A stretch of 19,757 nt of DNA. It comes from Synergistaceae bacterium. Its GTDB lineage: Bacteria; Synergistota; Synergistia; Synergistales; Aminobacteriaceae. A program made the position numbers and the translations under genes. The stretch spans positions 1-19,757 of the forward strand of contig JAISMH010000015.1 in the NCBI GenBank assembly GCA_031276855.1, written 5' to 3'. The notes beneath the pieces were generated by a model. The model did not search any database. It was not told the origin of the DNA and worked only from the letters and a program-made list of their open reading frames with translations. The first letter of the stretch is position 1; every line of letters begins with the position of its first letter. Positions 1 to 19,442 of this stretch are shown here, piece by piece.

Positions 1-1
1 T

Positions 2-1108: not shown

Positions 1109-1461
1109 CCAATCGGGAATAGCGTCGCGCACCCCCTCCATTCAGGCTACACGCCGCCCTTCTCGAACATTTCCCAGTCGAAAGACGAAGGAAACGAATA
1201 GGCGTCGTTTCCTATTGCTTCGGCCAGAGCTCTGAAATCGATATCGCTTCCCTGGTTTGGAGAATGCGGCATTCGGACATGACAGCGCTGCGCGTCAGTC
1301 AAGGGTTCACCGGTTCCCCGCGAGCTGTTGGACATCACATGCACGCCTTTCACAGAAATATAATCCGGCACAAATATCTTTCAGCAATCCGCCGGCCGCC
1401 TTTAAGCAACTCCTGAAGTCACGATCAATCGCTTTGGATTATTATAGACTACCGCGGAGTA

Positions 1462-1488
1462 CAAAAAAACGACGTATTTTTTCGATAT
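1462..1488 (+). promoter_or_regulatory. Weak sigma-28/sigma-D-like promoter candidate: CAAA-N15-TTCGATAT.
   Basis: CGATAT core at 1483-1488 with an A-rich -35 15 nt upstream. This is 7 of 12 matches to TAAA-N15-GCCGATAT. Confidence 0.2.
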
Positions 1489-1619
1489 TGCGGGGTTGGC
1501 GGGATATTTTCCGGGCCGGGCGCTTTAGTTTGGCGCGCGGGTGACCGACAAAGAGGATAGCAGCGGTGAAAGCCGCTCGGGAAACGGCCTCAAGGAATGG
1601 GGTTTGCAATTTTCGCGGA

Positions 1620-1637
1620 GCGATAAAAACTTATCGC
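1620..1637 (+). promoter_or_regulatory. Inverted repeat GCGATAA-N4-TTATCGC abutting the flgE SD (GGGAGGG). The half-site resembles a sigma-28 -10 element (GCCGATAA).
   Basis: The 7-bp arms are exact reverse complements. The repeat ends 3 nt before the SD. Confidence 0.4.
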
Positions 1638-1655
1638 GGGAGGGATTCATATAAA

Positions 1656-3764
1656 ATGTTGAGATCGCTTATGACGGCGGTGACGGGCGTTCGGTCGCAT
1701 CAGACGATGCTGGACGTGACGGGAAACAACATCGCGAACGTCAACACCACGGGGTTCAAAAAAGACGCCACGATCTTTCAGGATCTTCTGTATCAGACGT
1801 CTCAGGGCGCCACGGGGCCGGGAGACGCGAGGGGCGGCGTCAACCCCGCCCAGGTCGGGTTGGGCGTGAAGGTCGGGGCCATCGAGACCATCCACTCGCA
1901 GGGCGGCGCCCAGTACACGGGCAACAAGTCGGACATGATGATCGAAGGGGAGGGCTATTTCGTCTTCCGCAACGGAATCAGCCGAATCTACAGCCGCGCG
2001 GGCAACTTCACGCTGGACGCCGACAAGAAGCTGGTGCACTCCGGGACCGGTTACGTGGTGCAGGGCTACGAGATGGTGCAGAACCCCGCGAAGGCCACGG
2101 AGTACATCAAGGCGGGCGACATCAGCGACATCGTCATCCCGATAGGCAAGGAAATGGAGGCCCGCGCGACAAGCGTCGTGGGGGTCAAGAACAACTTGGA
2201 CGCCACGAAAGACCCCTATCTGCCGATAGGCTACGCGGATATTGAGTATAGCGACGAAACCGGGCCCGCCAAGGTCAAGATCGGCGGTATTGAGTACGAC
2301 GTGAGTTTCAAGACGAATACTGCAGGCACAACCGCCGGCACAGGGTATCTGACTGTCAACTTGGCCACAGGCGGGACGCCAGTATCCATCCAGCTTAATA
2401 TGACGGGGATCAAAGATGGGAAACCTGTTTTGGGAATAGAGGGTGCTATGGGAACTCCACCCGTTGCTACTGTGACTTTGAGCGGTGGAACAACGGCCAC
2501 GGTAGCCTATAACAACGATACCGGTATTTTGAAACTGACAGATTCGACTACTGGCTCACGGACATTAGGAGCGACGCTTTGGGAAATCAACCTGAAGGAG
2601 AACATGAACTACAATGCGTCCAGCATTTCAGGTGTTGTTCCAGCCGCTCTCAACCCAGGAGGTGGGCAGACTTACAATTACAGCTTTATTACGGAGTTTA
2701 GTGAAAATGCTCTCAGCGGGTCTCCGGCGCAGCTTACAATCTGGTACTATGGAAGTTCTCCGGCAGACGCTACCAACAAAGATTTTGGAAAGCTCACAGC
2801 CCAAGTTTCGTTTAAGTCGGACGGTACATTCGATTCGGTGACACCCCTGACAGCGACTGCCGGCACAGGAACGTGGCCTACGTGGCTCACTGTTGACAGC
2901 ACCGATCCCACTAAACCAAACATGCTTCAGGTAGTCGTTTCGGAAAGCAATTCTTCCGTACTGGAGATGAAGGTCGCTAAAGATGCGACCGCTACTTCTT
3001 TCGATACGGTCAACCAGATCACGCAGGGCGGATTCGAGCAGACGAAATTGACGGTCTACGACTGCCAAGGGAACCCCTACACGATGGAAATCACGTTCAA
3101 GAAGCTGACGAAAGACCGCTGGCGGTGGGAGGCCTTCTTCCCGGAGAATCCCGAGCTTTTCAACGTGCCCCCGTCGGGGGAACTGAAGTTCGGCCCTTGC
3201 GGCAAACTCAAGTTTCCGAAGGACGGGGCGGACATCTACGTCCCCTTCTCCCTGCTCGGGACGAAGAACGAGACCATTCACCTGGACTTCAGCAACAAGT
3301 ATTTCAAGGGCGACGATTACGTCTGGGACACCGACGCCCTGGAGGGCCTGACGCAGTACGCCTCGGCCAGCACGGCGAAGGCCTACTATCAGGACGGCTA
3401 CCAGATGGGCGTCCTGAACAACTACACCGTGGGCAACGACGGAACGATCACGGGCATCTACACCAACAGCCAGACCCAGCCCATATACCGCGTGGCCCTG
3501 GCGCAGTTCGCCAACCCGATGGGCCTCGACAAGGTGGGCAGCACCATGTTCCGCGAATCGATCAACTCCGGCATGGCGCAGATCGACGCGGCGTCGGACA
3601 ACGGGTCGGGAACCATCGCCGGCGGCACGCTCGAAATGTCGAACGTGGATCTGACGGAGGAGTTCACGCGCCTCATCATCGCGCAGCGCGGCTTTCAGGC
3701 GAACACCCGGGTCGTGACGACCAGCGACCAGATTCTGGAAGAAGTCGTCAACCTGAAACGGTAA
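1656..3764 (+). CDS. flgE: Flagellar hook protein FlgE, long form (about 702 aa) with a large central insertion domain.
   Basis: N-terminus MLRSLMTAVTGVRSHQTMLDVTGNNIANVNTTGFK and C-terminus GTLEMSNVDLTEEFTRLIIAQRGFQANTRVVTTSDQILEEVVNLKR are the canonical flagellar rod/hook terminal segments. RBS GGGAGGG lies 8 nt upstream of ATG 1656. The track ORF starts at 1566, but the ATG at 1656 with an SD is preferred. Confidence 0.93.
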   Translation: MLRSLMTAVTGVRSHQTMLDVTGNNIANVNTTGFKKDATIFQDLLYQTSQGATGPGDARGGVNPAQVGLGVKVGAIETIHSQGGAQYTGNKSDMMIEGEGYFVFRNGISRIYSRAGNFTLDADKKLVHSGTGYVVQGYEMVQNPAKATEYIKAGDISDIVIPIGKEMEARATSVVGVKNNLDATKDPYLPIGYADIEYSDETGPAKVKIGGIEYDVSFKTNTAGTTAGTGYLTVNLATGGTPVSIQLNMTGIKDGKPVLGIEGAMGTPPVATVTLSGGTTATVAYNNDTGILKLTDSTTGSRTLGATLWEINLKENMNYNASSISGVVPAALNPGGGQTYNYSFITEFSENALSGSPAQLTIWYYGSSPADATNKDFGKLTAQVSFKSDGTFDSVTPLTATAGTGTWPTWLTVDSTDPTKPNMLQVVVSESNSSVLEMKVAKDATATSFDTVNQITQGGFEQTKLTVYDCQGNPYTMEITFKKLTKDRWRWEAFFPENPELFNVPPSGELKFGPCGKLKFPKDGADIYVPFSLLGTKNETIHLDFSNKYFKGDDYVWDTDALEGLTQYASASTAKAYYQDGYQMGVLNNYTVGNDGTITGIYTNSQTQPIYRVALAQFANPMGLDKVGSTMFRESINSGMAQIDAASDNGSGTIAGGTLEMSNVDLTEEFTRLIIAQRGFQANTRVVTTSDQILEEVVNLKR

Positions 3765-3802
3765 CGGACGGCCGGACGGCCGATAAATCGGGTAGGGCGG
3801 TA

Positions 3803-4036
3803 ATGATTGAACTTCACCGTTTGAATGGGGAGCTTTTTTGGCTGAATTCTGATATGATTGAGACCATCGACATCACGCCGGATACCGTGGTGCGTCTGGT
3901 CAACGGGCATCGTTACGTCGTGAGGGAAAACTGTCGAGATGTGAGGAACGCCATCGTGAACTTCCGGCGGGAGGCGGGGTATTCCTGCGTCCCGTTCGGG
4001 ATTCCTTTGGAAGCGGAGGACGGTCAGACGCGTTAG
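3803..4036 (+). CDS. flbD: Flagellar protein FlbD, 77 aa.
   Basis: MIELHRLNGELFWLNSDMIETIDITPDTVVRLVNGHRYVVRE matches the conserved FlbD N-terminus (MIxLTRLNGxxFxLNxxxIExIExTPDTVIxLxNGxKYVVxE). Its position directly after flgE is conserved. Confidence 0.85.
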   Translation: MIELHRLNGELFWLNSDMIETIDITPDTVVRLVNGHRYVVRENCRDVRNAIVNFRREAGYSCVPFGIPLEAEDGQTR

Positions 4037-4046
4037 TCGCTTTGTA

Positions 4047-4066
4047 TTAAATTAAATTTAATTTAA
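4047..4066. repeat. Perfect 20-bp all-A/T palindrome TTAAATTAAATTTAATTTAA in the flbD-motA spacer.
   Basis: The reverse complement equals the sequence. It sits in a window that is otherwise above 60% GC. Confidence 0.95.
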
Positions 4067-4081
4067 GCGAATTCAGCGGTT

Positions 4082-4918
4082 TTGGCGGGCTCGAAAATTT
4101 TGTTCGGCCAGGGGGGGACGCAGGACTTGGATTTAACCACTGTCGTCGGATTTCTTATCTGTTGGATTCTCGTTATCGGCGGAATGGCCGCCGGGGGAAA
4201 CATTGCCGCCTATTACGACTTTCCTTCCATATTGATCACCGTGGGCGGATCGATAGGGGCCGTCGTCATCTCGCACCCGAGCGACATCCTGAAAACGGTG
4301 GGGGGCGCCATCAAGAACGCCTTTTTTTCCTCGGACCCCAACCTTCTCGGCATGGTGCAGACGATCGTGAGCTTCGCCGAAAAAGCCCGCAGAGAAGGGC
4401 TTCTCGCGCTCGAGGGCGATGTCGCGGAGCTGGACGACGAGTTTTTGCGCAAATCCATCCAGCTGGTGGTGGACGGCACGGATCCCGAACTGGTGAAGGC
4501 CATTCTGGACACGGAAATAGGCATTCTGGAAGACCGGCATTCCGCGAACAAATCCGTTTTCGACGCGACCGCCGAGCTCGCCCCTGCCTACGGGATGATC
4601 GGAACCCTGATCGGCCTCATCGCCATGCTGGGGAACCTTCAGGACGTCAGCGCCCTGGGGCCCGGCATGGCCGTCGCCCTGATCACGACGATGTACGGCT
4701 CCATGATGGCCAACATGCTCTGCATCCCGGTGGCCAAGAAGCTGGCCGCCCGCTCCTCCAAGGAAATCCTCTCCATGGAGCTGATGGTGGAGGGCATTCT
4801 GGCGATCCAGGCCGGCGAAAACCCCCGCATCGTCGAGGAAAAGCTGAAGGTGTTCCTGCCTCCGAAACTGAGGCACAACCTGGAGGACGCCCAGAAAGCG
4901 GAAAGAGGAGAAAAATAG
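4082..4918 (+). CDS. motA: Flagellar motor stator protein MotA (proton channel, 4 TM).
   Basis: TM segments VVGFLICWILVIGGMAAGG and the C-terminal plug/TM3-4 region YGMIGTLIGLIAMLGNL…ALITTMYGSMMANMLCIPVAKKL are typical of MotA/PomA/ExbB. The track start TTG 4082 has a weak SD. An alternative in-frame TTG at 4127 (LDLTTVV) is preceded by a G-run at 4111-4117, so the true start is uncertain. Confidence 0.88.
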   Translation: MAGSKILFGQGGTQDLDLTTVVGFLICWILVIGGMAAGGNIAAYYDFPSILITVGGSIGAVVISHPSDILKTVGGAIKNAFFSSDPNLLGMVQTIVSFAEKARREGLLALEGDVAELDDEFLRKSIQLVVDGTDPELVKAILDTEIGILEDRHSANKSVFDATAELAPAYGMIGTLIGLIAMLGNLQDVSALGPGMAVALITTMYGSMMANMLCIPVAKKLAARSSKEILSMELMVEGILAIQAGENPRIVEEKLKVFLPPKLRHNLEDAQKAERGEK

Positions 4919-4921
4919 AAC

Positions 4922-5647
4922 ATGGCGCGCAAGAAAAAAGCTCCTCCGCCGGGGCCCAGCGCCCCTCTTTACATGGCGACCTACGGGGACATGGTGACGC
5001 TCGTCCTGTGCTTCTTCGTCCTGCTGTTCGCGATGTCCTCGGTCGACGCCCAGAAGTTCCAGAAGGCCATTCTCTCCCTGCGCGGCTCTCTCGGCATCCT
5101 GAGGGGCGGTTCAACCGTGGAGGAGACCGTGGATCCGAACACCAGCGGCGAAGACGGAAGGGCCGCGGGCGCGGCGCCCCGCCATGTGATGAACACGCAG
5201 CACGTGGCCTACACGATCAACAGCTACCTGCGCAGCGAAGGGCTGGACAAAGCCATACAGGTGACCATCAACCAGAGGGGGGTCGCCGTCTCCATATCGG
5301 ATCAGTTCCTTTTCGACAGCGGCAGCGCCGTGCTGAAAACCGAAGGCAAGCGGGTCTTGTACAAAATAGCGACGCTGGTACGCGAGGAAGTCCCGGCCGT
5401 TTCCGTCGAGGGACACACGGACGCCGTTCCCCTGCGGGGGGGCATTTACCGGGACAACTGGGGACTCTCCTCGGCGAGGGCCGCCGTGGTGGCCTCCTAT
5501 CTGGCGGAGGAGGGAGGCGTGACGCCCCAGAAGCTCCAGGCGGTGGGATACTCGTCCTACCAACCGACGGTGCCCAACGACACGCCGGAGCATCGGGCTC
5601 TGAACCGCCGGGTGGACCTCGTTTTTCTGTCGCAGTATCCGAAATGA
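4922..5647 (+). CDS. motB: Flagellar motor protein MotB (OmpA-like peptidoglycan-binding C-terminal domain).
   Basis: N-terminal TM helix (MATYGDMVTLVLCFFVLLFAMS) with the conserved Asp in DMVTLL. OmpA-like C-terminal motif EGHTDAVP…NWGLSSARAAVVASYL…NRRVDLVF. GAGGAG SD 11 nt upstream. Confidence 0.9.
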   Translation: MARKKKAPPPGPSAPLYMATYGDMVTLVLCFFVLLFAMSSVDAQKFQKAILSLRGSLGILRGGSTVEETVDPNTSGEDGRAAGAAPRHVMNTQHVAYTINSYLRSEGLDKAIQVTINQRGVAVSISDQFLFDSGSAVLKTEGKRVLYKIATLVREEVPAVSVEGHTDAVPLRGGIYRDNWGLSSARAAVVASYLAEEGGVTPQKLQAVGYSSYQPTVPNDTPEHRALNRRVDLVFLSQYPK

Positions 5648-5678
5648 CGATTCGTGGGAAAGGGCGGACCGGAATACT

Positions 5679-6125
5679 ATGAAAAGAATTTTGATTTTTG
5701 CCGTCGTGGGTTTGGTCATGTTCGCCGTCGGCTTCGGAGGAGGGCTCTTCATGGGCCGTGCGATGGCGCCCGACAGCTCCTCGTCGGGCCGGACGAAGAG
5801 CGTGGAGGCGCCGGGGCCGCTCGTCGCGGTGGGGGAGTTTACCAGCAATCTGGCCGGGTCGGGCAAGCACGTCATCAGCTTCACCGTTTCGCTGGAGACC
5901 CTGAACCCGAAGGCCGCGGACATCGTGGGCAACGTCTGGCTTCCGAGGATAAAAAACGAGATCCTGCTGATCGTGAAGGACAAAGTTTACGAAGATTTGA
6001 CGAGCGCCGAGGGAACGCTGCAGTTTGCCGAGGAGATCAAGCGGGCCGTCAACTCGCAGCTCCCGGAAGTCAACGGCGAGGCCCCCGTGGTGCGCGTCCT
6101 CTTCGAGGCGTTTGTGCTGCAGTGA
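5679..6125 (+). CDS. fliL: Flagellar basal-body-associated protein FliL.
   Basis: Single N-terminal TM helix followed by …LVAVGEFTSNL…HVISFTVSLETLNPKAADIV…IKNEILLIV…, which matches the FliL family pattern (…xLxxFxVNL…RYLxxxIxLE…). Its position between motB and fliM is conserved. Confidence 0.8.
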   Translation: MKRILIFAVVGLVMFAVGFGGGLFMGRAMAPDSSSSGRTKSVEAPGPLVAVGEFTSNLAGSGKHVISFTVSLETLNPKAADIVGNVWLPRIKNEILLIVKDKVYEDLTSAEGTLQFAEEIKRAVNSQLPEVNGEAPVVRVLFEAFVLQ

Positions 6126-6146
6126 GTTTACGCCGACAATAAAAAA

Positions 6147-6178
6147 ATTGATAATAAAAGATTGATAATAAAAAGATT
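6147..6178. repeat. AT-rich tandem direct repeat ATTGATAATAAAAG, two copies then a partial one, in the fliL-fliM spacer. The minus strand reads TATCAATCTTTTA (IHF-like WATCAANNNNTTR).
   Basis: Read directly from 6147-6160 and 6161-6175. Confidence 0.85.
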
Positions 6179-6225
6179 CAGCGTGCGGCGGCGCCGCGCG
6201 GCAATTTTAAGGCAGGTGAGTGTTC

Positions 6226-7230
6226 TTGGCCCCCGATGTGTTGTCCCAGAGCGAAATAGATTCTTTGTTGAGCGCGCTGACGAGCGGGTCGATGGATCTC
6301 GACTCGATGACCCAGCAAAGCGAGTACGAGGTCAAGCTCTACGACTTCAAGCGCCCCGACAAATTCAGCAAGGACCAGCTGAGAGCCATTCAAATGATCC
6401 ACGAGGCCTTCGGGCGCCAGCTCTCGACCGTGATGTCCTCTCTCATCCGGTCCATGGTCGCGGCCGAGGTCGCCTCCGTGGACCAGCTGGCCTACGAGGA
6501 GTTCGTGAACTCCCTGGTTCAGCCCACGGTCATCGGAACGCTGGAAATGCATCCCTTCAACGGCAACGCCCTGATCGAGATCAATCCGAACCTGGTTTTC
6601 GCGATGATAGACCGGCTTCTGGGAGGCAAGGGGGAGTTTACCGGCAAGGCGCGGGAGCTGACGGACATCGAAAAGACGGTCATCGAGCGCGTACTGATGC
6701 GGATGCTCGAACTTCTGGAAGACAGCTGGAGTACGGTCGTGGACGTGAGGTTCCGCTTCGAGAGCATGGAGAGCAACCCCTTCTTCGTGCAGGTCTGTCC
6801 CCCGCGGGATATGGTGCTGCTGGTCATCATGAAGCTGCAGGTCGGAGAGGTGGAGGGGATGATCAGCCTCTGCATTCCCTACTTCCTGATGGAACCTATC
6901 GTGGACAAGCTCTCCTCTCAGCAGTGGTTCGTCTCGACGGGCCGCAAGGGCGACGACGGCGTCCGCGAAAATCTGCTCCATTCGCTCGACCGGGTGAAGG
7001 TTCCCATGTCCCTCGAACTGGGGCACACGGTTCTCAGCCTGGCGGACGTCTACGACCTCGAAGAGGGCGACGTGATCAAATTGGACGAGGAAATCGGCAG
7101 CGAGGTCGAGGTGCGGGTCGGAAACTATGTCCGCTTCAAGGCCAGGCCGGGAACCTTGGACGGCCGTCTGGCGGCCGAGGTGACGCGGGTCGTCAGCGGC
7201 ACGGACGAGCCTGAAGGAGGGGGAAACTGA
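6226..7230 (+). CDS. fliM: Flagellar motor switch protein FliM.
   Basis: N-terminal CheY-P-binding peptide (M)APDVLSQSEIDSLLSAL. Central CheC-like FliM domain. C-terminal SpoA/FliN-like domain (VPMSLELGHTVLSLADVYDLEEGDVIKLD). Start TTG 6226 lies 5 nt after AGGTGAG (6214-6220). The track lists GTG 6220, which sits inside that SD. Confidence 0.9.
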   Translation: MAPDVLSQSEIDSLLSALTSGSMDLDSMTQQSEYEVKLYDFKRPDKFSKDQLRAIQMIHEAFGRQLSTVMSSLIRSMVAAEVASVDQLAYEEFVNSLVQPTVIGTLEMHPFNGNALIEINPNLVFAMIDRLLGGKGEFTGKARELTDIEKTVIERVLMRMLELLEDSWSTVVDVRFRFESMESNPFFVQVCPPRDMVLLVIMKLQVGEVEGMISLCIPYFLMEPIVDKLSSQQWFVSTGRKGDDGVRENLLHSLDRVKVPMSLELGHTVLSLADVYDLEEGDVIKLDEEIGSEVEVRVGNYVRFKARPGTLDGRLAAEVTRVVSGTDEPEGGGN

Positions 7231-8342
7231 TGGATAATCTGTTGAGCCAGGATGAAATAAACTCTCTTCTCGGCGGAGGCGACGCCCCTTCAGGCTCCGC
7301 GGGGCTTTCTATGGAAGACACGCAGATTCTGAACGAGGTCGCGAGCATTTTCTCGAACGCGGAGAACAACGTGTTCAGCATGCTGGCGGGCAAGGAGGTC
7401 AACTCCAAAGGCGGGGAGACCGAGGTTCTTTCTCAGGCGGAGTTCAAGGCGAAACTTGGCGCCGAGACGCCTTTCGTTTTCAGGGCGACCTTCGACGGCT
7501 TCGACGACGTGCCTTTGATTTTTGCCGTCGGGCGCCGCGGCGCGCTGGCGCTGGCCGATTTGATGATGGGCGGAGAGGGGAAGGACGTCCCCGAGGAGGC
7601 CAGCGAGCTTTACCTGAACGCGGCTCAGGAGGGATTGAGCCAGGTCGTGGGCTCCGCCTTCACCAGCCTGAGCGGCCTGATGGGCGGCCGCCGCCTGATG
7701 CCCGAAAACACGAAGTCCGCTTTGGAAGAGGAAGACGACTGGGCGGTATTTCCCGCCTTGGACGCCGAGGCCAGGGTGTGGGCCAGCTTCTCCGAGGTGG
7801 AAATAGAGGGGCTGGAGCCCTTCGCGATATGGGCCGCCATTCCTTTGGATTCCGTGAAAACCATGGCGGAGCTGATTCGTCAAAATATGGGAGGAGGGGA
7901 AAAGCAGCCGGAGTCCCCTTCTTTATCTTCTTCTCCGTCTCCCCAGGCGCCCCGCGCGGCTCAGGCGGCGGGCGCTTCGCCCGCTTCCGCTCCTTCGACG
8001 AGAGGCGGCCAGCGTCCCGGGCCCGTGACCGACGTGCGCCCCGCGGAGTTCACTCCCCTCTCGGCCAAGGGCCCGGCGGGGAGCGGCAGCAAGATCGACC
8101 TGATCGCGGATATTCCGGTGCGTGTCACCGTGGAACTGGGGAAGACGAGAAAAAATATCTCCGAGATCCTGGGCATGACGACGGGTTCCGTCATCGAACT
8201 GGACAAAATGGCGGGGGAGCCCGTGGACGTGCTCGTCAACGGAAAGCTGATCGCCAAGGGCGAGGTCGTCGTGATCGACGAAAACTTCGGAGTGCGCGTC
8301 ACCGAGGTCTTGGGCGCGGCTCCGAAGGCCTACGCGGTGTGA
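7230..8342 (+). CDS. fliY: Flagellar motor switch protein FliY/FliN, long form. FliM-like N-terminal peptide, middle domain, and C-terminal FliN/SpoA domain.
   Basis: N-terminus MDNLLSQDEINSLLGG (LSQxEIxxLL CheY-binding motif). C-terminus IPVRVTVELGKTRKNISEILGMTTGSVIELDKMAGEPVDVLVNGKLIAKGEVVVIDENFGVRVTEV is a canonical FliN. ATG overlaps the fliM stop (TGATG). Confidence 0.85.
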   Translation: MDNLLSQDEINSLLGGGDAPSGSAGLSMEDTQILNEVASIFSNAENNVFSMLAGKEVNSKGGETEVLSQAEFKAKLGAETPFVFRATFDGFDDVPLIFAVGRRGALALADLMMGGEGKDVPEEASELYLNAAQEGLSQVVGSAFTSLSGLMGGRRLMPENTKSALEEEDDWAVFPALDAEARVWASFSEVEIEGLEPFAIWAAIPLDSVKTMAELIRQNMGGGEKQPESPSLSSSPSPQAPRAAQAAGASPASAPSTRGGQRPGPVTDVRPAEFTPLSAKGPAGSGSKIDLIADIPVRVTVELGKTRKNISEILGMTTGSVIELDKMAGEPVDVLVNGKLIAKGEVVVIDENFGVRVTEVLGAAPKAYAV

Positions 8343-8449
8343 GTTTGCCGCTTCGATTCAAAGGAGCTGCGATTCGAAAAGGGCTGCCGCGCTTCTTTGC
8401 ATACGGTAATTGTCCGCAGAAAAAGTCTTCGTCCGCCGGGAGATGCGTA

Positions 8450-8458
8450 TGATATAAT
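8450..8458 (+). promoter_or_regulatory. Extended -10 promoter candidate (TGATATAAT) inside the 315-nt fliY-cheY spacer. The -35 is poor.
   Basis: TGnTATAAT consensus match at 8450-8458, about 200 nt upstream of cheY. Confidence 0.3.
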
Positions 8459-8657
8459 CACTTCGGCGTTGCTTTGGGGTTCCGCGCCGAAACGTGAACG
8501 TGAAGAGTTTTTTCGGCGGCGCCGGCAAGAAGAACGGGAGCAGTACGAAAAACACGGAAGCGGCCGGAAACGCAGGGAAAATTTCCGGCAGAAGCCGAAA
8601 AAGGCTGAAAGTTTTGTTTGAATTTCAGAGAATCTTAGGTAAGCGAGGGGTTGCAGC

Positions 8658-9020
8658 ATGGGCAAAAAGGTTCTGATAGTGGATGACGCTGCCTTTATGC
8701 GTATGATGTTGAAGGATATTCTCCAGAAACACAGTTTCGAGATTGTGGGAGAAGCAGAAAACGGAAAGCTCGGGGTTGCGGCCTATCAGAAATACAAGCC
8801 CGACATCGTGACGATGGATATAACGATGCCGGAAATGAACGGCATCGACGCCGTAAAGGCCATCAAGACGCTGGATCCTGCCGCGAAGATCGTGATGGTC
8901 TCCGCGATGGGACAGCAGCCGATGGTCATCGAGGCCATTCAGGCGGGCGCCAACGACTTCATCGTCAAGCCCTTCCAACCGGAGCGCGTGATCGAGGCCA
9001 TTTCCAAAGTCTTGGGTTAA
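8658..9020 (+). CDS. cheY: Chemotaxis response regulator CheY (single REC domain, 120 aa).
   Basis: KVLIVDDAAFMRMML…DIVTMDITMPEMNGIDAVKAIK…KIVMVSAMGQQ…AGANDFIVKPF. All REC catalytic residues are present (DD, D-phosphoacceptor in TMDI, T/S, K). SD GCGAGGGG 7 nt upstream. Confidence 0.92.
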   Translation: MGKKVLIVDDAAFMRMMLKDILQKHSFEIVGEAENGKLGVAAYQKYKPDIVTMDITMPEMNGIDAVKAIKTLDPAAKIVMVSAMGQQPMVIEAIQAGANDFIVKPFQPERVIEAISKVLG

Positions 9021-9151
9021 AAACGGGAATTTTGGGTTAAAGCCGAAAGTTTTGGGTTGAAACCGAGGGTTCCGGGTAAAATCCAATAGTTCCGGATCGA
9101 GCCCAAAGTTTCGGGCTGAATTCGAGATTCCGGGTTGGACTGCCGAAGGGG
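9012..9151. repeat. Degenerate tandem array with a 20-bp period and 7 units (consensus about YYGGGTTRAARCCGARRGTT). It starts inside the last codons of cheY and fills the cheY-fliO spacer.
   Basis: Units at 9012, 9032, 9052, 9072, 9092, 9112 and 9132. The first three begin TTGGGTTAA, TTGGGTTAA and TTGGGTTGA, and identity decays towards fliO. Confidence 0.8.
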
Positions 9152-9197
9152 TGGCTGAGCTACGGGGGAAGTCGGTTTTACCGCTTATATTACGCGT

Positions 9198-9461
9198 ATG
9201 GCTCTGGCTCTTGCGGTGATGGCTGTCATTGCGGTCGCCGCTGTTCGTTTTGTCAAAAGCGGAGCCCGCGGAGGGCGGAGCGGGGCGCGTGTCGAAGTTA
9301 TGGCATCCTTGCCTTTGGGTAAGGATGTTTTTTTCGTTCTGCGGTGCGGTCCCGAGGTTTTTGCCCTGACATCCGGGCACGCGGGGACTCATCTGATAGG
9401 CAGGTGGAAATATGAAGAATGGCTTCGATGGGAAGAAAAGGAGAAGGCTTGCGAAAGCTGA
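9198..9461 (+). CDS. fliO: Flagellar biosynthesis protein FliO (FliZ of Bacillus), short form.
   Basis: One TM helix (LALAVMAVIAVAAV) followed by RVEVMASLPLGKDVFFVLRCGPEVFALTSGHAGTHLIG. This matches the FliO core (…ERVPLGPRESLVLVEVGGRVLVLGVT…). Its position between cheY and fliP is conserved. An in-frame stop at 9156 bounds the start, and the SD is weak. Confidence 0.55.
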   Translation: MALALAVMAVIAVAAVRFVKSGARGGRSGARVEVMASLPLGKDVFFVLRCGPEVFALTSGHAGTHLIGRWKYEEWLRWEEKEKACES

Positions 9462-10245
9462 GTCATTTTTCTTCTTCTGCTTTTTGACCGGTCTCGTCCT
9501 CGCGGTCTTTTTTGCCGCTTCGCCCGCCGAAGCCGCTTTTGTCGAGGAAGCGCCGAGAATACCCATTCCGCTTCTGCAGTTGGGCGTCGTCCCGGCGGAC
9601 TCCCCGCAGGATGTCGCCGTTTCCTTGCAGATACTGGCTCTTTTGACGGTGCTGACCCTGGCCCCGGCCATTTTGCTGATGCTGACGAGCTTCACGCGGA
9701 TCGTCGTGGTGCTGGGGTTCATTCAGCGCGCGATCGGTCTCCAGCAGTCGCCGCCCCAGCAGACCATCGTCAGCCTCGCCCTCTTCCTCGCCCTCTTCAC
9801 GATGTATCCGACGTGGAACCGCATCTACGAGAACGCCCTCGCCCCCTATCTGGCGAAGGAGATCGACTCCCCGCGGGCGTGGACGGAGACGATCACGCCC
9901 CTGAGGGAGTTCATGTTCCGTTACACCCGTCAGGAGGAGCTGTCCCTGATGGTCTCCATGGCGAACCTCGAACGCCCGGAGAACCGGGAGGAGGTTCCGA
10001 CGCGGGTTCTGATCCCCGCTTTCATGCTGAGCGAGCTCAAGACCGCTTTTCAGATGGGCGTGGTGATCTACATTCCCTTCATCATCGTGGACATGATCGT
10101 GTCGAGCGTCCTTTTGGCGATGGGCATGATGATGCTGCCCCCCATGATGATTTCTCTGCCGTTCAAGATCCTGCTCTTCGTGATGGCCGACGGCTGGAAC
10201 CTCGTCGTCGTGAGCCTTCTCAAGAGCTTCACGAACGTGCCGTAA
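9412..10245 (+). CDS. fliP: Flagellar type III export apparatus protein FliP.
   Basis: Signal peptide, then the conserved LTLAPAILLMLTSFTRIVVVLGFIQRAIGLQQSPP and C-terminal YIPFIIVDMIVSSVLLAMGMMMLPP motifs. AGGTGGA SD. Overlaps the 3' end of fliO by 50 nt. Confidence 0.92.
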   Translation: MKNGFDGKKRRRLAKAESFFFFCFLTGLVLAVFFAASPAEAAFVEEAPRIPIPLLQLGVVPADSPQDVAVSLQILALLTVLTLAPAILLMLTSFTRIVVVLGFIQRAIGLQQSPPQQTIVSLALFLALFTMYPTWNRIYENALAPYLAKEIDSPRAWTETITPLREFMFRYTRQEELSLMVSMANLERPENREEVPTRVLIPAFMLSELKTAFQMGVVIYIPFIIVDMIVSSVLLAMGMMMLPPMMISLPFKILLFVMADGWNLVVVSLLKSFTNVP

Positions 10246-10257
10246 GGGGGCGGGCTC

Positions 10258-10533
10258 ATGGACATCGTTCCGATCAACATGTTCGACATCTTAAACGAGG
10301 CGGTCTGGACGATGCTCCTCGTCACCATGCCCATTCTTCTGGTGGCGATGGGCGTGGGGCTCATTATCGGCATCGTGCAGACGGCGACGTCCATTCAGGA
10401 GCAGACGCTGATCTTCATCCCGAAGATTTTGGCCGTGTTTTTGTTCATCATCCTCGTCGGGCCCTGGATGGCCGACAAGATTCTGGGCATCACTCGGGAA
10501 ATTCTGGGGCACCTCGAGAGGTTCATTCAATGA
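10258..10533 (+). CDS. fliQ: Flagellar export apparatus protein FliQ.
   Basis: 91 aa with two TM segments. LLVTMPILLVAMGVGLIIGIVQTATSIQEQTLIFIPKILAVFL is the FliQ signature. Confidence 0.9.
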   Translation: MDIVPINMFDILNEAVWTMLLVTMPILLVAMGVGLIIGIVQTATSIQEQTLIFIPKILAVFLFIILVGPWMADKILGITREILGHLERFIQ

Positions 10534-10570
10534 ATCCAGTAAATCCAATGAATCCAGTAAATCCGATGAG
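10528..10570. repeat. 18-bp tandem repeat CAATGAATCCAGTAAATC, 2.4 copies, at the fliQ stop and in the fliQ-fliR spacer.
   Basis: Copies at 10528-10545 and 10546-10563 are perfect. A partial third copy is CGATGAG. Confidence 0.9.
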
Positions 10571-10590
10571 CCCGGTTTGGAGGCCGAACC

Positions 10591-11388
10591 TTGCAGGGGC
10601 TTGAGATTCCCGCGCAGCTTCTGGTGGTGTACTGTCTGGTGCATCTTCGGTTCGTGGGCATGATGTTCACGTTTCCCCTGTTTTTCACGACGGCGAGCCC
10701 CGTTCCCTTCCGGTTTCTTTGCGCCGTTTTCCTGACCGTGACCGCGGCGGGCACTCTGGCGGAGAGCGGGGAGGATTTCGCCGTCTCCATGGTTCTCCTC
10801 GAAAGCTGGGTGCCGCTTCTGCTGATGGCCCTGCGCGAGCTCTTCATCGGCGCGGCCCTCGGTCTCCTCGCGGCCCTGCCTCTGGTGGCGCTCCAGGTCT
10901 CGGGGGAGCAGGTGAGCATGGCGATGGGGCTCTCCATGGCCAGCGTGATGGACCCCCTGATGGACCGCCAGACCTCCATCATCGGGCAGCTTCAGTTTCT
11001 GATCGGGCTGTGGTTCTATTTCCGCTGGAACGGCCACCTTCTGCTGATTCAGGCGGTCGTGGAAAGCCTGCGCCTTCTCCCGCCGGGGAGGCTCTCCTGG
11101 ATTCCCGCGGGGGACCTGTCGTTCGGGGATTGGCTCTCGGCGGTTTTCGACCTGGCGGCGAAGATCGTCGTTCCTTTTTACTGCGCCCTCCTGCTGGCGG
11201 ATGTCGGGCTGGGGTTTCTGGCGCGGACCGTTCCCCAGATGAACATTTTCATTTTGGGCCTGCCCGTGAAAATCGCGCTGGGGTTCTTCGTCCTGGCGAT
11301 CGTTCTGCCCCTGGCCGTGGAGATCGTCTACGCGCATCTGGAGCGGTGGGTCGAGTTCGCCCTGCAAAGCTCGATGGTCTGGCGCTGA
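10591..11388 (+). CDS. fliR: Flagellar export apparatus protein FliR.
   Basis: Polytopic membrane protein. ALRELFIGAALGLLAALPLVALQVSGEQVSMAMGLSMASVMDP is typical of FliR. TTG start with GGAGG SD at 10579-10583 (7-nt spacing). Confidence 0.88.
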   Translation: MQGLEIPAQLLVVYCLVHLRFVGMMFTFPLFFTTASPVPFRFLCAVFLTVTAAGTLAESGEDFAVSMVLLESWVPLLLMALRELFIGAALGLLAALPLVALQVSGEQVSMAMGLSMASVMDPLMDRQTSIIGQLQFLIGLWFYFRWNGHLLLIQAVVESLRLLPPGRLSWIPAGDLSFGDWLSAVFDLAAKIVVPFYCALLLADVGLGFLARTVPQMNIFILGLPVKIALGFFVLAIVLPLAVEIVYAHLERWVEFALQSSMVWR

Positions 11389-11436
11389 ACGGGCCCGGCC
11401 CCCGTCAAGCGAATCCGGCAATATCGGCGTCGGCGG

Positions 11437-11500
11437 TATAAATTCGGTGGATATAAATTCGATGGCTATAAATTCGATGAATATAAATCCCGTGACTGAA
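11437..11500. repeat. 15-bp tandem repeat TATAAATTCGATGRN, 4 copies plus degenerate extras, in the fliR-flhB spacer.
   Basis: Units at 11437, 11452, 11467 and 11482. Each carries a TATAAAT box and an in-frame ATG or GTG. Confidence 0.9.
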
Positions 11501-11530
11501 TCGAGCGATATGAATTCTCGGCGGCCGTCG

Positions 11531-12631
11531 ATGAAAACAATCCCCCGTTTCGTTTTCGACATTCAATTCTTCGCCCAGGAGCGCACGGAGGCGGCGACGC
11601 CCAAGAAGCGCCAGAAGGTGCGCTCCGAGGGGAAGGTCTGCAAAAGCCGCGACCTGACCGCCGCCGTCGAAATTCTGACGGGCCTCGTGGGGCTCGTGAT
11701 GTTCGGGCCCTCGATCTTCGGCGGGCTCATCGACTATTTCCGCGAGATGATCGGGGTTCTGGGGGAGGAATCGCTTCTGCGGGCTGGCTGGTTTTACCGC
11801 CTGGAGTTCACGGCGCTCCGGGCCTACTTCGGCGCCTGGCTCCTGCCGGGGCTCCTCATCGCGGCCTTCACCACGGCCGTGACGGTCTATCAAATCGGCT
11901 GGGTCATCAGCTTCGAGCCTTTCAAATTCGACTTGAACCGCCTGAACCCCGTCTCCGGCATGAAAAAGATCATCTCCCTGCGCTCTCTCGTGGAGCTGCT
12001 GAAGGGGCTTCTGAAGGCCTCCCTCTTCGTCCTCGTCATCTATATCGCCATGCGGGACAAACTGCCCGCCGCCGTGTACGCGATGCAGCTTTCGATGGCG
12101 GCAGGGGCCCTGCTCTTCTGGAACCTGCTGTGGGACCTCTCGATGCGGCTGGCCGCGATGCTTTTGGTCATGGCGCTCGTGGACTACCTGTACCAAAAGT
12201 GGGATTATGAAAAGTCCATACGGATGAGCAAGCAGGAGGTCAAGGAAGAGTTCAAGCAGATGGAGGGCGACCCTCAGATCAAAAGCAAGATCCGCCAGAA
12301 ACAGCGGGAGCTCGCGAAGAAGAGAATGATGTCCTCCGTGCCCAAGGCGGACGTGGTCATCACGAACCCCACCACCCTGGCGATCGCTTTGGTGTACGAC
12401 CGCAAAATCATGGCCGCGCCTCAAATCACGGCGAAGGGCAAGGGCTTCGTCGCCCGGAAGATCCGCGAGCTGGCCGCGGCGCACGGGGTCCCCGTCATCG
12501 AAAACAAACCCCTAGCCTGGGCGCTTTACGAGTCCGCCGATGTGGGGGACGAGGTGCCGGAGAACCTCTACCGCGGCGTCGCCGAAATTCTGGCGATGGT
12601 CTACAAACTCGCCGGAAAACAGCCGTCTTAG
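11531..12631 (+). CDS. flhB: Flagellar export switch protein FlhB.
   Basis: N-terminus MKTIPRFVFDIQFFAQERTEAATPKKRQKVRSEGKVCKSRDL parallels Bacillus FlhB (MKLRVDLQFFAGEKTEKATPKKR…). The C-terminal autocleavage region contains NPTTLAIALVY, which carries the NPTH-like motif. The track ORF extends in-frame upstream to GTG 11447 through the 15-bp repeats. ATG 11531 is preferred by homology. Confidence 0.9.
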   Translation: MKTIPRFVFDIQFFAQERTEAATPKKRQKVRSEGKVCKSRDLTAAVEILTGLVGLVMFGPSIFGGLIDYFREMIGVLGEESLLRAGWFYRLEFTALRAYFGAWLLPGLLIAAFTTAVTVYQIGWVISFEPFKFDLNRLNPVSGMKKIISLRSLVELLKGLLKASLFVLVIYIAMRDKLPAAVYAMQLSMAAGALLFWNLLWDLSMRLAAMLLVMALVDYLYQKWDYEKSIRMSKQEVKEEFKQMEGDPQIKSKIRQKQRELAKKRMMSSVPKADVVITNPTTLAIALVYDRKIMAAPQITAKGKGFVARKIRELAAAHGVPVIENKPLAWALYESADVGDEVPENLYRGVAEILAMVYKLAGKQPS

Positions 12632-12752
12632 GGCCGTTTTCAGCCGCGGCGGATCTGCTTGGACGAGCCCTCTAATCGTTCACAAAGTTCTTGCGCGGAA
12701 GTCCCGCCGTATTGTAAGATAAAAATACATTATACACGGGGAGAGGGTCGTC

Positions 12753-14015
12753 ATGCGGAGAGCGGGAAGAAAAACGGATTCATGGGAGTTCCTGAAATTA
12801 AGGAAGCTCTTGAATTTCCTGAGGTTCATTAAATTTGCGGCGTGTTTTCTCTTCCTGTTTTCCCATCCCGCTCTCCCCGCTTTTTGCGCCGAGGCCGACA
12901 CGTCCCTTTGGACGTGGGACGTGCTGGTCATTCCCCCCGACGAGGGCTGGCAGAGCGAGAAAGGTCTTTCCGTTCAAAATGCGCTCCAATGGCACGCGGC
13001 CGAAATCTCGGAGAGCGGAGCCGGCATTCGGGGTCATGACCTCCGATTCGTCTTTCTCCCGCCCCTGACGGAGGACTCCGCGCGGAGTTTCGCCCTTCCC
13101 AACGACCCCCGCGCCGTCGCCGTCATGAGCTTCGCGTCGAACCCCGTGGACAGGGCGCTGGCGGATAGAGAACTGGCCGGCCGCTCCGCGGGAAGCGGGC
13201 TTCCCCTCTTCCTGGCCGGCGGAGAAAACGTTTCCCTCTTCGAGGGGAGCCGTCCTGTCCCGCGGCTTTTCGCCCTCGACCTTTTTCGGGACTACCGCTG
13301 TCAGGCTTTCGCGGATTACGCGTCGAAAATCGCGGCAAAAGACGCCCGGGTGGGCGTCATGGGCGCGCGGTTCACGCTCAACGAGGAACGCGAGGCCAAA
13401 ATTTGCTTCGACCTCTTCTCGGAAGCGGGTTTCATGCCCATGCCCTACTGGGTGGACGCCTCCGTGAGGGACTCCTTCTCCATGGTCGAACAGGAGATCG
13501 TCGACTACAGCAACGGCATTCTCATCAGCTACATCGGGAGCATGGGCACGAAGGAAATCTGGCGCGGCATCATGGGACACCAGTCCCCTTACCGGATCTG
13601 GTACGGCGGGGTTCCCGACAAATCCTTCCTTTCTTATAGAGGCATGATCTTCGCCGATCAGAACATGTATCTGGACGCGCTGGGGGGCTTTGAGCGGCTG
13701 AAGCGCGACCTGTGGTCGTCGCGCGCCCTGTCCGCCCCGGACAAGGTCGCGGCGGGGCGGGCCAACGCCCTCGCGTTCTGGCTGATTCAGGCCCTGAAGG
13801 CCCTTCCGGGCGATTTGGACAGCATCGACAGGAACGCGCTGCTTTCCCTTCTGGCCGAAGCGCGGGACATTCCCTTCGGCTCCCAGACGCTGAATATCGA
13901 CCGGGACACCCACCGCCCCGGAACGCGGCGGGTCTTCATCATGGAAATGCGCAACAGGAGCTTTTTTGTCCTGGACACCCTCGGCGTGCGGGGACTGAAA
14001 CACCGCGGCGATTGA
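12753..14015 (+). CDS. Secreted periplasmic-binding-protein-like protein (type I PBP fold, LivJ-like), Sec signal peptide. No adjacent ABC permease or ATPase.
   Basis: N-terminal hydrophobic signal sequence (FLRFIKFAACFLFLFSHPALPAFCAEA). Alternating beta-alpha pattern: VLVIPPDEGWQ…, VGVMGARFTLNEE…, ILISYIGSMG…. GGGGAGAGGG SD 6 nt upstream. The family assignment is by pattern only. Confidence 0.55.
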   Translation: MRRAGRKTDSWEFLKLRKLLNFLRFIKFAACFLFLFSHPALPAFCAEADTSLWTWDVLVIPPDEGWQSEKGLSVQNALQWHAAEISESGAGIRGHDLRFVFLPPLTEDSARSFALPNDPRAVAVMSFASNPVDRALADRELAGRSAGSGLPLFLAGGENVSLFEGSRPVPRLFALDLFRDYRCQAFADYASKIAAKDARVGVMGARFTLNEEREAKICFDLFSEAGFMPMPYWVDASVRDSFSMVEQEIVDYSNGILISYIGSMGTKEIWRGIMGHQSPYRIWYGGVPDKSFLSYRGMIFADQNMYLDALGGFERLKRDLWSSRALSAPDKVAAGRANALAFWLIQALKALPGDLDSIDRNALLSLLAEARDIPFGSQTLNIDRDTHRPGTRRVFIMEMRNRSFFVLDTLGVRGLKHRGD

Positions 14016-14164
14016 GTTTTAAGCTCAGGGGGGCGGAGCCAACAAAGAAAGTAAGCGATTCGCACAGCTCCTTCGTCGCTGGCTCTCTGCTTATCGTTCG
14101 CCCAAAAGCGGGCTCACTGGCCCCCCCGAACCCCCCTGTTTATTTAATTCGGAGGTCTTTTTTC

Positions 14165-14929
14165 ATGGAAGCAGGCGATATGACTACAGGCGTTGCGGAA
14201 CGGCTGGCGGAGTGCCTGAAAAAGAAGAAAACCGACTGCGTGACGCTGGGGAGCCTGCCCGTTTCGCTGAAAAGGCTGCTGACGGGGAAACCCAGGCCCG
14301 CCGCCGCCGAGCTCGAAAAATGCGCCACCCCGCACCTCGGGGAAAACCTGATGCTGAAACGGAGCGGGCGGTACGTTTACCTCGCGCTCCGGCAGCCCGA
14401 CGAGTCGCTGCTGCTCGGCATCCTTCGGAAGAGGGCCGGGAAGAGCCCCAGCGCGAACAACACCCCCTTCAGGAAAGAAGAATTCATCGCCGTCCTGAAC
14501 CGCCTGATCGAGCAGGGAAAAATCCTTGTCAGGCTCAACAAAGACTGCAAACCCCTCCTTTTCCCGATTCCGGCCCGGAGCCCGGAGGCCCCGGCCGGAG
14601 CGGAAAAAGCGGGCCTGAACGCAAATCTGAATATAAATCAGAATGCAAATCAGGAAGCGGGGCGGGAGAGCGTTTCCGCGGAGCGGTTCGAGAGCGCGTA
14701 CCGGGAGCTGGAAGGGGGGAAGTTCTTTGTCCGCGTCTGCGACCTCCGCCGCCGTCTGGGCTGGGGGCGGAAGGAGTTCGACGGGACGGCGGCCGCGCTT
14801 CGGGACGCGGGGAAAATCCAGCTGCAGTCCGGGGACACCGCCTACTTCAGCGAGCGGGACATCGCGGACAGCTTCATCGACGAGAACGGCTTTCGGATGC
14901 TCACCCTGATGTGGCTCGGGCGGACGTAG
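14165..14929 (+). CDS. Hypothetical protein (254 aa) with two globular halves separated by an Ala/Asn-rich linker. Each half resembles a winged helix.
   Basis: GGAGG SD 9 nt upstream of ATG 14165. GC3-rich codon usage typical of this genome. No recognisable catalytic motif. Linker …PARSPEAPAGAEKAGLNANLNINQNANQEAG…. Confidence 0.55.
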   Translation: MEAGDMTTGVAERLAECLKKKKTDCVTLGSLPVSLKRLLTGKPRPAAAELEKCATPHLGENLMLKRSGRYVYLALRQPDESLLLGILRKRAGKSPSANNTPFRKEEFIAVLNRLIEQGKILVRLNKDCKPLLFPIPARSPEAPAGAEKAGLNANLNINQNANQEAGRESVSAERFESAYRELEGGKFFVRVCDLRRRLGWGRKEFDGTAAALRDAGKIQLQSGDTAYFSERDIADSFIDENGFRMLTLMWLGRT

Positions 14930-14937
14930 CCCGGAGG

Positions 14938-14979
14938 AACGGGGCGCGTTCCACGCCGCCCCGTTAATTTGAAATTTTG
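14938..14979 (+). terminator. Candidate intrinsic terminator or attenuator between the 254-aa gene and the NTPase gene.
   Basis: 9-bp GC-rich stem AACGGGGCG/CGCCCCGTT (14938-14946 pairs with 14957-14965) with a 10-nt loop, followed by AATTTGAAATTTTG. The T-tract is interrupted. Confidence 0.35.
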
Positions 14980-15006
14980 AACCTGAGTGTTTTTCTGGAG
15001 ATGAAA

Positions 15007-16995: not shown

Positions 16996-17018
16996 TTTAT
17001 AATTTATTATTTTATAAT

Positions 17019-17804
17019 CTACGGTTTGCGGAGCGCGTTTTCGACGAAGGGCTTCAGGAGGTCGATGGGGATGGGGAAGAAGGTGGTGGAGTTCCGCTCC
17101 CCCGCGATTTCGCGTATGGTCTGCAGGTAGCGCAGCTGCAGCGTCACGGGCGAGATCTCCATCTGCTGCGCGGCCTCGGACAGCTTGGCCGCGGCCTGCA
17201 GTTCGCCCTCGGCGGCGATGATCTTGGCGCGGCGCTCGCGCTCGGCCTCCGCCTGACGCGCCATGGCGCGCTTCATGCCCTCGGGGAGCTCCAGTTCTTT
17301 CACCTCGACGGCGCTGACCTTGATTCCCCACGGGTCGGTGCGTTCGTCGATGATCTTCTGCAGTTCGTGGTTGATTTTTTCGCGGGAGGACAGAACCTCG
17401 TCCAGCTCGACGGAGCCGACGACGGAGCGCAGGGTCGTCTGGGCCAGCTGGCTCGTGGCCTGAACGTAGTTCTCGACCTCCACGACGGAGTGCGACGGGT
17501 CCAGCACCCGGAAGTACACGACGGCGTTGACCTTGATGGGCACGTTGTCCTTCGTGATGACCTCCTGGACGGGGACGTCCATCGTCAAAATGCGGAGGTC
17601 GACGGTGACCACGCGGTCGATGACGGGAATGACGAACACGATGCCCGGCCCGCGGCTCCCGGCCAGGCGCCCCAGGCGGAAGATGACGACCCGCCTGTAC
17701 TCCGGTACGATTTTGACGGCGGAAGAAAACAGCAGCACCGCGATGAGCAAAACCCCAAACCAACTGCCGATGTTCGACAGTATCCCAAAGACGTCGACGA
17801 CCAT
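17019..17804 (-). CDS. SPFH/band-7 protein, stomatin-like (261 aa) with an N-terminal TM anchor.
   Basis: Minus-strand translation …[72 protein letters not shown]…[35 protein letters not shown] is canonical prokaryotic stomatin. ATG at 17802-17804 (complement) with a GGAGAG SD. The track merges it into a 638-aa ORF because of an open GC-rich frame upstream. Confidence 0.88.
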
Positions 17805-17816
17805 ATCCGAATCTCT

Positions 17817-17854: not shown

Positions 17855-17917
17855 CTTCCCGTACCCATGCGATTATACCCCATTCCCGCACCCTGTTCCC
17901 GACACCGCGCCCGCCGG

Positions 17918-19407: not shown

Positions 19408-19442
19408 CTTTGCGTTGTGATAGCCGTGCGTTGTCTGCGTTT

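Follow-up and report, generated by a model that had tools for sequence, protein, structure and literature searches.

What occupies the long gap between cheY and fliO in the flagellar operon of an uncultured Synergistaceae bacterium, how did it arise, and does it serve any purpose? The locus lies on contig JAISMH010000015.1 of assembly GCA_031276855.1, from which we analyzed positions 1 to 19,757 (19,757 nt, hereafter the window), containing part of this operon. Directly at the cheY end, on the plus strand at 9010-9149, the untranslated spacer carries a degenerate tandem array made up of seven 19-22-bp units. The array is lineage-specific, its ancestral state is a single copy, and sister arrays are found at other junctions of the same operon. 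We assign a probability of about 70% to the view that it is a functionless fossil minisatellite, acting only as an untranslated spacer.

Structure of the cheY-fliO array

The array is a real head-to-tail tandem repeat, composed of U1 (TCTTGGGTTAAAAACGGGAA, 9010-9029), U2 (TTTTGGGTTAAAGCCGAAAG, 9030-9049), U3 (TTTTGGGTTGAAACCGAGGG, 9050-9069), U4 (TTCCGGGTAAAATCCAATAG, 9070-9089), U5 (TTCCGGATCGAGCCCAAAG, 9090-9108), U6 (TTTCGGGCTGAATTCGAGA, 9109-9127) and U7 (TTCCGGGTTGGACTGCCGAAGG, 9128-9149). The unit lengths are 20, 20, 20, 20, 19, 19 and 22 bp, which bears out the seven units listed in the initial annotation but not its strict 20-bp period. Each unit combines a TTYYGGG head with a purine-rich tail resembling C-C-G-A-R-R-G. 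U1 overlaps the gene end, as had been proposed: the last cheY codons and stop (GTC TTG GGT TAA, 9009-9020, with TAA at 9018-9020) form its head.

The periodicity was assessed over 9006-9151, which is the most periodic 146-nt stretch in the whole window. Its lag-20 same-base autocorrelation equals 0.579, compared with 0.349 ± 0.023 in 2000 dinucleotide-preserving shuffles, none of which reached the observed value, and peaks occur at lags of 19-20 (0.50-0.58), 39-40 and 59. With default penalties, Tandem Repeats Finder (TRF) reported only 9006-9066 (period 20, 3.0 copies, score 73); none of 1000 shuffles reached this score, the shuffle maximum being 53, and the array thus passed the refutation test that the initial annotation had set for itself, a TRF score no better than that of shuffled sequence. 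With softer penalties, the repeat extended over 9008-9136 (period 20, 6.6 copies, 63% matches, score 103).

The two parts of the array differ in quality. Units 1-3 (9010-9069), the sole part found with default penalties, have TTTTGGG heads (TTTTGGGTT-type) and a mutual identity of 70-80%, while units 4-7 (9070-9149) have TTCCGGG or TTTCGGG heads and are 53-70% identical. The decay is therefore not monotonic, contrary to the progressive loss of identity first described, and falls into two head types. Across all pairs, unit identity ranges from 40% to 80%, against about 50% for random gapped 20-mers of the same composition, a level that the weak units exceed by little. Units 4-7 had been called weak by eye, and they are; yet when taken alone (9070-9151) they show a lag-19 autocorrelation of 0.508 that was reached by only 15 of 2000 shuffles, and their periodicity is weak but real.

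The gap itself measures 177 nt from the cheY stop to ATG 9198, as previously stated, but the array does not fill it, covering only 9021-9149. The segment 9145-9197 holds the old fliO ribosome-binding site and conserved fliO N-terminal codons. The 20-bp period is not a multiple of three and stops occur in all three plus-strand frames. The units abut directly, with none of the unique spacers that separate the repeats of a clustered regularly interspaced short palindromic repeat (CRISPR) array. The array belongs to the broad class of degenerate intergenic tandem repeats.

One irregularity was noted within the weaker part. The string GATCGAGCCCA in unit 5 (9095-9105) is similar to GATCGAGGCCA in the IEA codons of cheY (8990-9000), and units 5-6 can be read, with a 6-nt gap, as a degraded duplicate of the ten codons that end cheY (IEP--KVSG-stop against IEAISKVLG-stop). 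This resemblance hints at a second, longer duplication event behind U5-U6, which may or may not have occurred, as U5 matches the degenerate 20-bp unit consensus about equally well.

Comparison with related loci

For comparison, we collected about 100 related loci: scanning species-representative genomes for FliP gave 80, scanning metagenomes for FliO gave 11, and look-ups of the closest FliP proteins gave nine. None of them has the array; they include roughly 50 Synergistaceae loci, eight of which encode a FliP 81-91% identical to that of the window. The closest relatives, L092, L093 and L094, show 84-90% identity in FliP (by tblastn), 96-97.5% in CheY and about 91% in cheY DNA. The nearest relatives of the window are thus only about 90% identical in FliP, and no genome of the same species was found among the loci collected. 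Exact look-ups of the CheY and FliP proteins of the window returned no record either, and so yielded neither a second assembly nor strain variants.

Two of these relatives preserve the junction in a simple form. In alignment A1, both flanks of the array align well with L092 and L094. The L092 junction reads AAAGTTTTGGGTTAG, CCGGGGGAG and TGTCGGAGCTACGGGG in succession, with one unit where the window has seven; within the alignment this unit appears as TTTTGGGTTAG-CCGGGGGAG, followed directly by TGTCGGAGCTACGGGG. L094 likewise has a single unit, CTTGGGCTAA-AGGAG, and then CGGCCGGGCCACGGGAG. Relative to both loci, the window contains about 125 extra bases exactly at the array site, which corresponds to roughly six extra units. 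Five other loci (L093, L095, L098, L099 and L100) have short unrelated cheY-fliO spacers, and in about 40 Synergistales loci from farther afield the gap ranges from 38 to 197 nt and lacks the array; some of these gaps code for an N-terminal extension of FliO.

The composition of the units identifies what was probably copied. The heads match the end of cheY, while the tails GCCGAAAG, ACCGAGGG and GCCGAAGG match the Shine-Dalgarno region of fliO in relatives (CCGGGGGAG, AAGGAG). Because L092 and L094 carry one unit between conserved flanks, the ancestral state is best reconstructed as one segment of about 20 bp, running from the final codons of cheY through its stop to the purine-rich Shine-Dalgarno run of fliO. 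The origin proposed in the initial annotation, in which the cheY 3' end was serially duplicated in tandem and the copies then diverged, is supported by this single unit between cleanly aligned flanks, but the alignments support the whole junction, Shine-Dalgarno region included, as the amplified segment rather than the gene end alone.

Tandem repeats at other junctions

The cheY-fliO array is not the only tandem repeat of this operon. Within 6100-12650, all five operon gaps of at least 57 nt hold a tandem repeat, of which the cheY-fliO array is the largest. The other four, all on the plus strand, include a 14-bp unit in 2.8 copies in the fliL-fliM gap (6138-6178), a 16-bp unit in 2.3 copies just past the fliY stop (8350-8387), an 18-bp unit in 2.3 copies between fliQ and fliR (10528-10569), and a 15-bp unit in 3.5 copies in the fliR-flhB gap (11437-11488). 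The fliQ stop (CAATGAATCCAGTAAATC) was the seed of the fliQ-fliR repeat, whose unit occurs only once in L092, and the fliR-flhB gap measures about 144 nt in the window versus about 10 nt in L092. Repeats at gene junctions are likewise borne by the nearer clade members L095-L097.

Counting TRF arrays with a score of at least 50 and a period of at least 7, we found eight in the 19.8 kb of the window versus 19 in 275 kb from 42 loci of relatives, or 0.40 versus 0.07 per kb (Poisson P of about 1e-4 by our own arithmetic). This approximately six-fold excess points to a mutational tendency of the whole lineage to slippage or short tandem duplication at weakly constrained junctions, which is the simplest reading of the sister repeats.

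Several individual cases were recorded beside these counts. At the cheY-fliO junction itself, L096 (3517-3700) has an independent duplication of about 60 nt of the fliO 5' end, with the first copy ending in TAA. L001 (3476-3580) has a second copy of the cheY end (TTGGCTTAAATTA / TTGCTTAAATTA) about 48 nt downstream and immediately before fliO, again as an independent duplication. Other junctions are affected in L096 (4768-4900, a 70-bp unit in 1.9 copies between fliP and fliQ) and in L097 (3133-3204, a 25-bp unit in 2.9 copies between fliY and cheY). In the window, the flhB start called by the ORF finder (GTG 11447) falls within the 15-bp array, and alignments with relatives suggest a true start near ATG 11533. 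Three further repeats with periods of 15, 15 and 18 bp (15489-15562, 16203-16256 and 16262-16317) lie inside an open reading frame at 14977-16995, which has weak matches to the AAA_16 and AAA_22 ATPase families; they are probably coding repeats.

Origin and probable lack of function

The fossil minisatellite that we favor would have formed as follows. In the lineage of this genome, a junction segment of about 20 bp would have given rise to six additional head-to-tail copies of itself; it comprises the three final cheY codons, their stop, and the purine-rich ribosome-binding stretch of fliO. The copying probably involved slipped-strand mispairing or unequal recombination, and short direct repeats of the AAAG or GGAG type flanking the unit may have provided the starting point. 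The copies would then have diverged through point changes and indels of 1-2 bp. As part of the flagellar operon, the array is presumed to be transcribed but, with stops in each frame, to remain untranslated. The distance from the cheY stop to the ribosome-binding site of fliO would have grown from about 0-60 nt to about 125 nt. Plausible effects of such a spacer are passive: it would separate termination on cheY from initiation on fliO and add a long imperfect hairpin to the mRNA. A sequence-specific function is most likely absent.

Three points weigh against this account. First, units 4-7 are less similar to each other (53-70%) than are the third codon positions of cheY between the window and relatives without the array (74-77%), and the inner units thus look somewhat older than the split from these relatives. 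To explain this, one must assume that the array arose earlier and later collapsed in the relatives, that it changes at a faster rate, or that copying was inexact. Second, 9006-9151 folds at -51.3 kcal/mol, a stability above that of 96.6% of simulated arrays, which leaves room for selection on structure. The 1000 simulated diverged arrays were derived from the unit consensus with the observed changes per unit and uniform substitutions, and averaged -40.2 ± 5.7 kcal/mol, 3.4% of them being as stable as the observed sequence. Third, the lack of function is deduced from a lack of conservation rather than from a demonstration.

Folding of the array transcript

Could the array act as a cis-regulatory RNA element? 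As transcribed, it is predicted to form a long imperfect hairpin right after the cheY stop, because the unit heads (UUUUGGG) are complementary to the tails (CCCAAAG / CCGAAAG); the U5 tail GAGCCCAAAG, for instance, perfectly complements the UUUGGGUU head. Such a hairpin could shield the upstream fliM-fliY-cheY message from 3' exonucleases, as repetitive extragenic palindromic (REP) hairpins do, and it could also hide the ribosome-binding site of fliO and lower fliO translation. Reduced translation of fliO could in turn strengthen a terminator-like hairpin inside that gene and step down the export-gate genes. A conserved and covarying hairpin of this kind does lie 150 nt downstream, in fliO.

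The minimum free energy of the sense strand at 9005-9200 equals -65.1 kcal/mol (z = -1.9 against shuffles), and the antisense strand of the same region folds worse (-42.9 kcal/mol, z = -1.25). These statistics are borderline, given that eight of 200 shuffles fold as well as the native sequence and that the substitutions in the simulated arrays were uniform. Moreover, folding of this kind is expected of any tandem array with a partly self-complementary unit, and with no array in any relative there is no covariation to support the structure. Searches of the whole window against Rfam returned nothing at the gathering score, and a permissive scan of 8900-9300 gave only chance-level matches (E-values of 4.9 and 5.7). 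The inverted-repeat search of 8900-9300 found no exact-seeded pairs. Intrinsic terminators, sought as a GC-rich hairpin with a T-run, are absent from 9010-9150, the nearest being at 9302-9339 within fliO. The predicted structure is the sole functional hint for the array, suggestive but not convincing, and we hold a role as a cis-acting RNA element to be rather unlikely.

The fliO start and the hairpin within fliO

The junction downstream of the array shows an unusual fliO start. A Shine-Dalgarno-like run, GAAGGGG (9145-9151, plus strand), shares bases with the tail of unit 7. In alignment A1 its counterpart in relatives is AAGGAG or GAGGAG, and the purine-rich tails of the remaining units are modelled on it. 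In L095, L096, L098 and L100, a TTG or GTG start codon follows four bases past this run (GAGGAG-TCGC-TTG-ACT-ACG-GGG-GAA in L095 and L098, GTG in L096 and L100). At the same position, the window has an in-frame TGA (9156-9158), also found in L093, while L092 has GGA and L094 has CGG; L099 has no canonical fliO start, and in L001 an in-frame TAA is followed by ATT. The thirteen codons that follow in the window (ATGEVGFTAYITR, 9159-9197) match the conserved N-terminus of FliO and are preceded by no ATG, GTG or TTG. The first canonical start is ATG 9198, which opens the reading frame 9198-9461 and has no Shine-Dalgarno sequence before it.

Conservation, without indels, extends over the Shine-Dalgarno run and the 13 codons that come after the missing start (TGE..F/L..YI.R). 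By these comparisons, the canonical fliO start codon has been lost in this subclade, and candidate initiation sites are the conserved ACG at 9162 and the downstream ATG 9198. The gene was identified as fliO by its position between cheY and fliP and by a weak match to TIGR03500 (E-value 0.0048, below the curated cut-off); Pfam gave no match to the protein even at E-values up to 5.

Farther downstream, the terminator-like hairpin occupies 9302-9339 on the plus strand (stem at 9302-9329, followed by a T-run) with the sequence GGCATCCTTGCC-TTTG-GGTAAGGATGTT and the codons ASLPLGKDVFFV. Its DNA, synonymous sites included, is nearly invariant in about 25 relatives whose FliO proteins are only 45-66% identical. 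In an alignment of 43 sequences, 84% of cells are paired, compared with 37-50% in slid controls, and the covariation score was reached by none of 500 shuffles. Seven of the 12 pairs have changed on both sides, though these changes may go back to few independent events. One pair occurs as UA in 24 sequences, CG in 14 and UG in four, and couples synonymous leucine codons (TTG/CTG) to lysine AAG or arginine AGG. The hairpin may be an internal attenuator between cheY/fliO and fliP, fliQ and fliR.

Taken together, the lost start and the hairpin suggest regulated low expression across the cheY-fliP boundary. This suggestion underlies a case in which junction segments are repeatedly amplified in the flagellar operon of this clade and the resulting spacers are kept for tuning expression, with a translation-controlled internal attenuator that sets stoichiometry. 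The 125-nt hairpin-forming spacer would then uncouple fliO translation from cheY; with the fliO start lost (TGA 9156), ribosome traffic over the hairpin at 9302-9339 would be low, and transcription of fliP, fliQ, fliR and flhB would be attenuated relative to the C-ring genes. We give this scenario a low probability.

Protein binding and remaining alternatives

The units could also represent phased DNA sites that a regulator or a nucleoid protein binds cooperatively, much as iterons or operator arrays are bound. The spacing is regular at about 20 bp, the TTYYGGG head recurs, and each unit is weakly palindromic between head and tail. But the spacing wanders from 19 to 22 bp, and the motif degenerates from unit to unit. 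B-DNA has 10.5 bp per turn; by our own arithmetic, a 20-bp step corresponds to about -34 degrees per unit, or about 200 degrees over six steps, and the units do not share one helical face. Cooperative binding on one DNA face, with which the initial annotation had called the period compatible, is therefore not supported, in view of the drift and the rotation as well as the lack of conservation, the array being absent from all relatives. When up to three mismatches were allowed, the motif occurred only at 9030 and 9050 within the 19.8-kb window and in none of 94 related loci. Iterons and operators have a conserved motif near a promoter or an origin and a cognate protein; here the motif is decaying and unconserved, a scan of 8300-9700 found no promoter-like site, the array sits within an operon, and the adjacent CheY, a 120-aa receiver domain, has no DNA-binding domain. 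We regard protein binding as very improbable.

An assembly artefact or a translated array (in fliO, in small ORFs or in the 365-aa minus-strand ORF 8625-9722) is the least credible of all, even though the contig derives from a metagenome assembly and this long ORF spans the array region: units that differ by 20-60% have unique k-mers, making collapse or expansion unlikely, both flanks are colinear with relatives, a coding reading is excluded by the period and the stops in every plus-strand frame, and the minus-strand ORF lies antisense to cheY and fliO and has no Pfam match.

Three candidate signals within the units were considered, the first two of which were rejected. A sigma-28 promoter was sought by eye, with GAAAGTTT resembling the -35 element TAAAGTTT and GCCGAAAG the -10 element GCCGATAA, but the two elements overlap within a unit, and when they are taken from adjacent units the spacer equals 9 nt, not 11. 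CsrA sites would be served by only three GGA triplets (U1, U5 and U7), not one per unit. For a G-quadruplex, the 6-17-nt loops between the GGG runs are non-canonical.

Operon context

Gene order was assigned by Pfam and BLAST. The flagellar genes of the window are flgE (1566-3764), flbD (within ORF 3125-4036), motA (4082-4918), motB (4922-5647), fliL (ending near 6125), fliM (6220-7230), fliY (7230-8342), cheY (8658-9020, plus strand), fliO (up to 9461), fliP (9412-10245), fliQ (10258-10533), fliR (10591-11388) and flhB (up to 12631). The cheY label is sound: the single receiver domain matches the Pfam Response_reg family with an E-value of 5.9e-33, and the best NCBIfam match is a CheY model.

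The fliY-cheY gap (8343-8657) spans 315 nt, versus 150-270 nt in relatives, and contains a 74-aa ORF (8397-8621) that matched no protein family and, by tblastn, nothing in relatives. Downstream of flhB, the rest of the window (12632-19757) contains no flhA, flhF or flhG. The ORFs 12753-14015 and 13712-14929 have no Pfam match; at the equivalent place, L092 has a gene with a HipA_C domain. An SPFH/Band 7 protein is encoded on the minus strand at 17019-18935.

Comparison with known repeat systems

The array is closest to minisatellites, or variable-number tandem repeats (VNTRs), that arise by slipped-strand mispairing: it shares with them head-to-tail units in the 10-100-bp range, a non-coding location, local derivation, restriction to one lineage with a single copy in relatives, and decay. 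It differs from the typical case in that its unit spans both the end of one gene and the ribosome-binding site of the gene that follows, and its copies, except perhaps U1-U3, are too diverged for ongoing slippage.

Mycobacterial interspersed repetitive units (MIRUs), reportedly described by Supply and colleagues in 1997 and 2000, for example from the senX3-regX3 intergenic region, are similar in placing tandem units between operon genes, with the upstream stop and signals for the downstream gene. As a family, MIRUs are dispersed over about 40 loci; their units measure 40-100 bp and contain small ORFs through which translational coupling is maintained. In contrast, each junction studied here has its own unit (20, 18, 15, 14 and 16 bp), the array motif has no copy at any other site in the 19.8-kb window or in the 94 related loci searched, and units of 19-22 bp with stops in all frames do not keep a frame.

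The REP and bacterial interspersed mosaic element (BIME) hairpins are dispersed palindromic families that stabilize upstream operon mRNA. If the array does work as an RNA element, it would resemble them in forming a strong hairpin directly past a stop codon in a polycistronic transcript, but this hairpin is a unique by-product of a local tandem array. Iterons and phased operators also consist of direct repeats of about 20 bp, whereas the array has no origin or promoter context, cognate protein or conservation, and its motif decays.

Two published cases of abundant repeats offer partial parallels. Borg elements are described (PMC9879509) as carrying many independent tandem repeats, both intergenic and genic, that formed recently and are virtually absent from related host genomes. 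The presence of many lineage-specific repeat regions is common to both, but the array units are old and decayed, and the contig is bacterial and chromosome-like rather than a giant extrachromosomal element. Marine Beggiatoaceae, according to PMC4679880, have intergenic TAACTGA direct repeats, one heptamer at 169 places genome-wide, with a proposed post-transcriptional role. Stop-containing direct repeats between genes are again the common feature, whereas here the units differ per junction and are locally derived, unlike that single heptamer.

Biological implications

The array itself is of little consequence, and the fliO side observations, that is, the loss of the start and the internal hairpin, are more interesting. 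If the array does act through RNA structure, or if the attenuator scenario is true, it would be part of a step-down between the high-copy and low-copy components of the flagellum, which would be of interest for flagellar assembly and operon polarity. For annotation, arrays of this type can mislead the calling of start codons, here for fliO and flhB. The locus also indicates that one lineage can amplify several junctions of one operon. The array provides a clear and datable example of the birth of a spacer inside a tightly packed operon, by amplification of a junction made of a stop codon and a ribosome-binding site, and as such it bears on how overlapping or coupled genes become separated.

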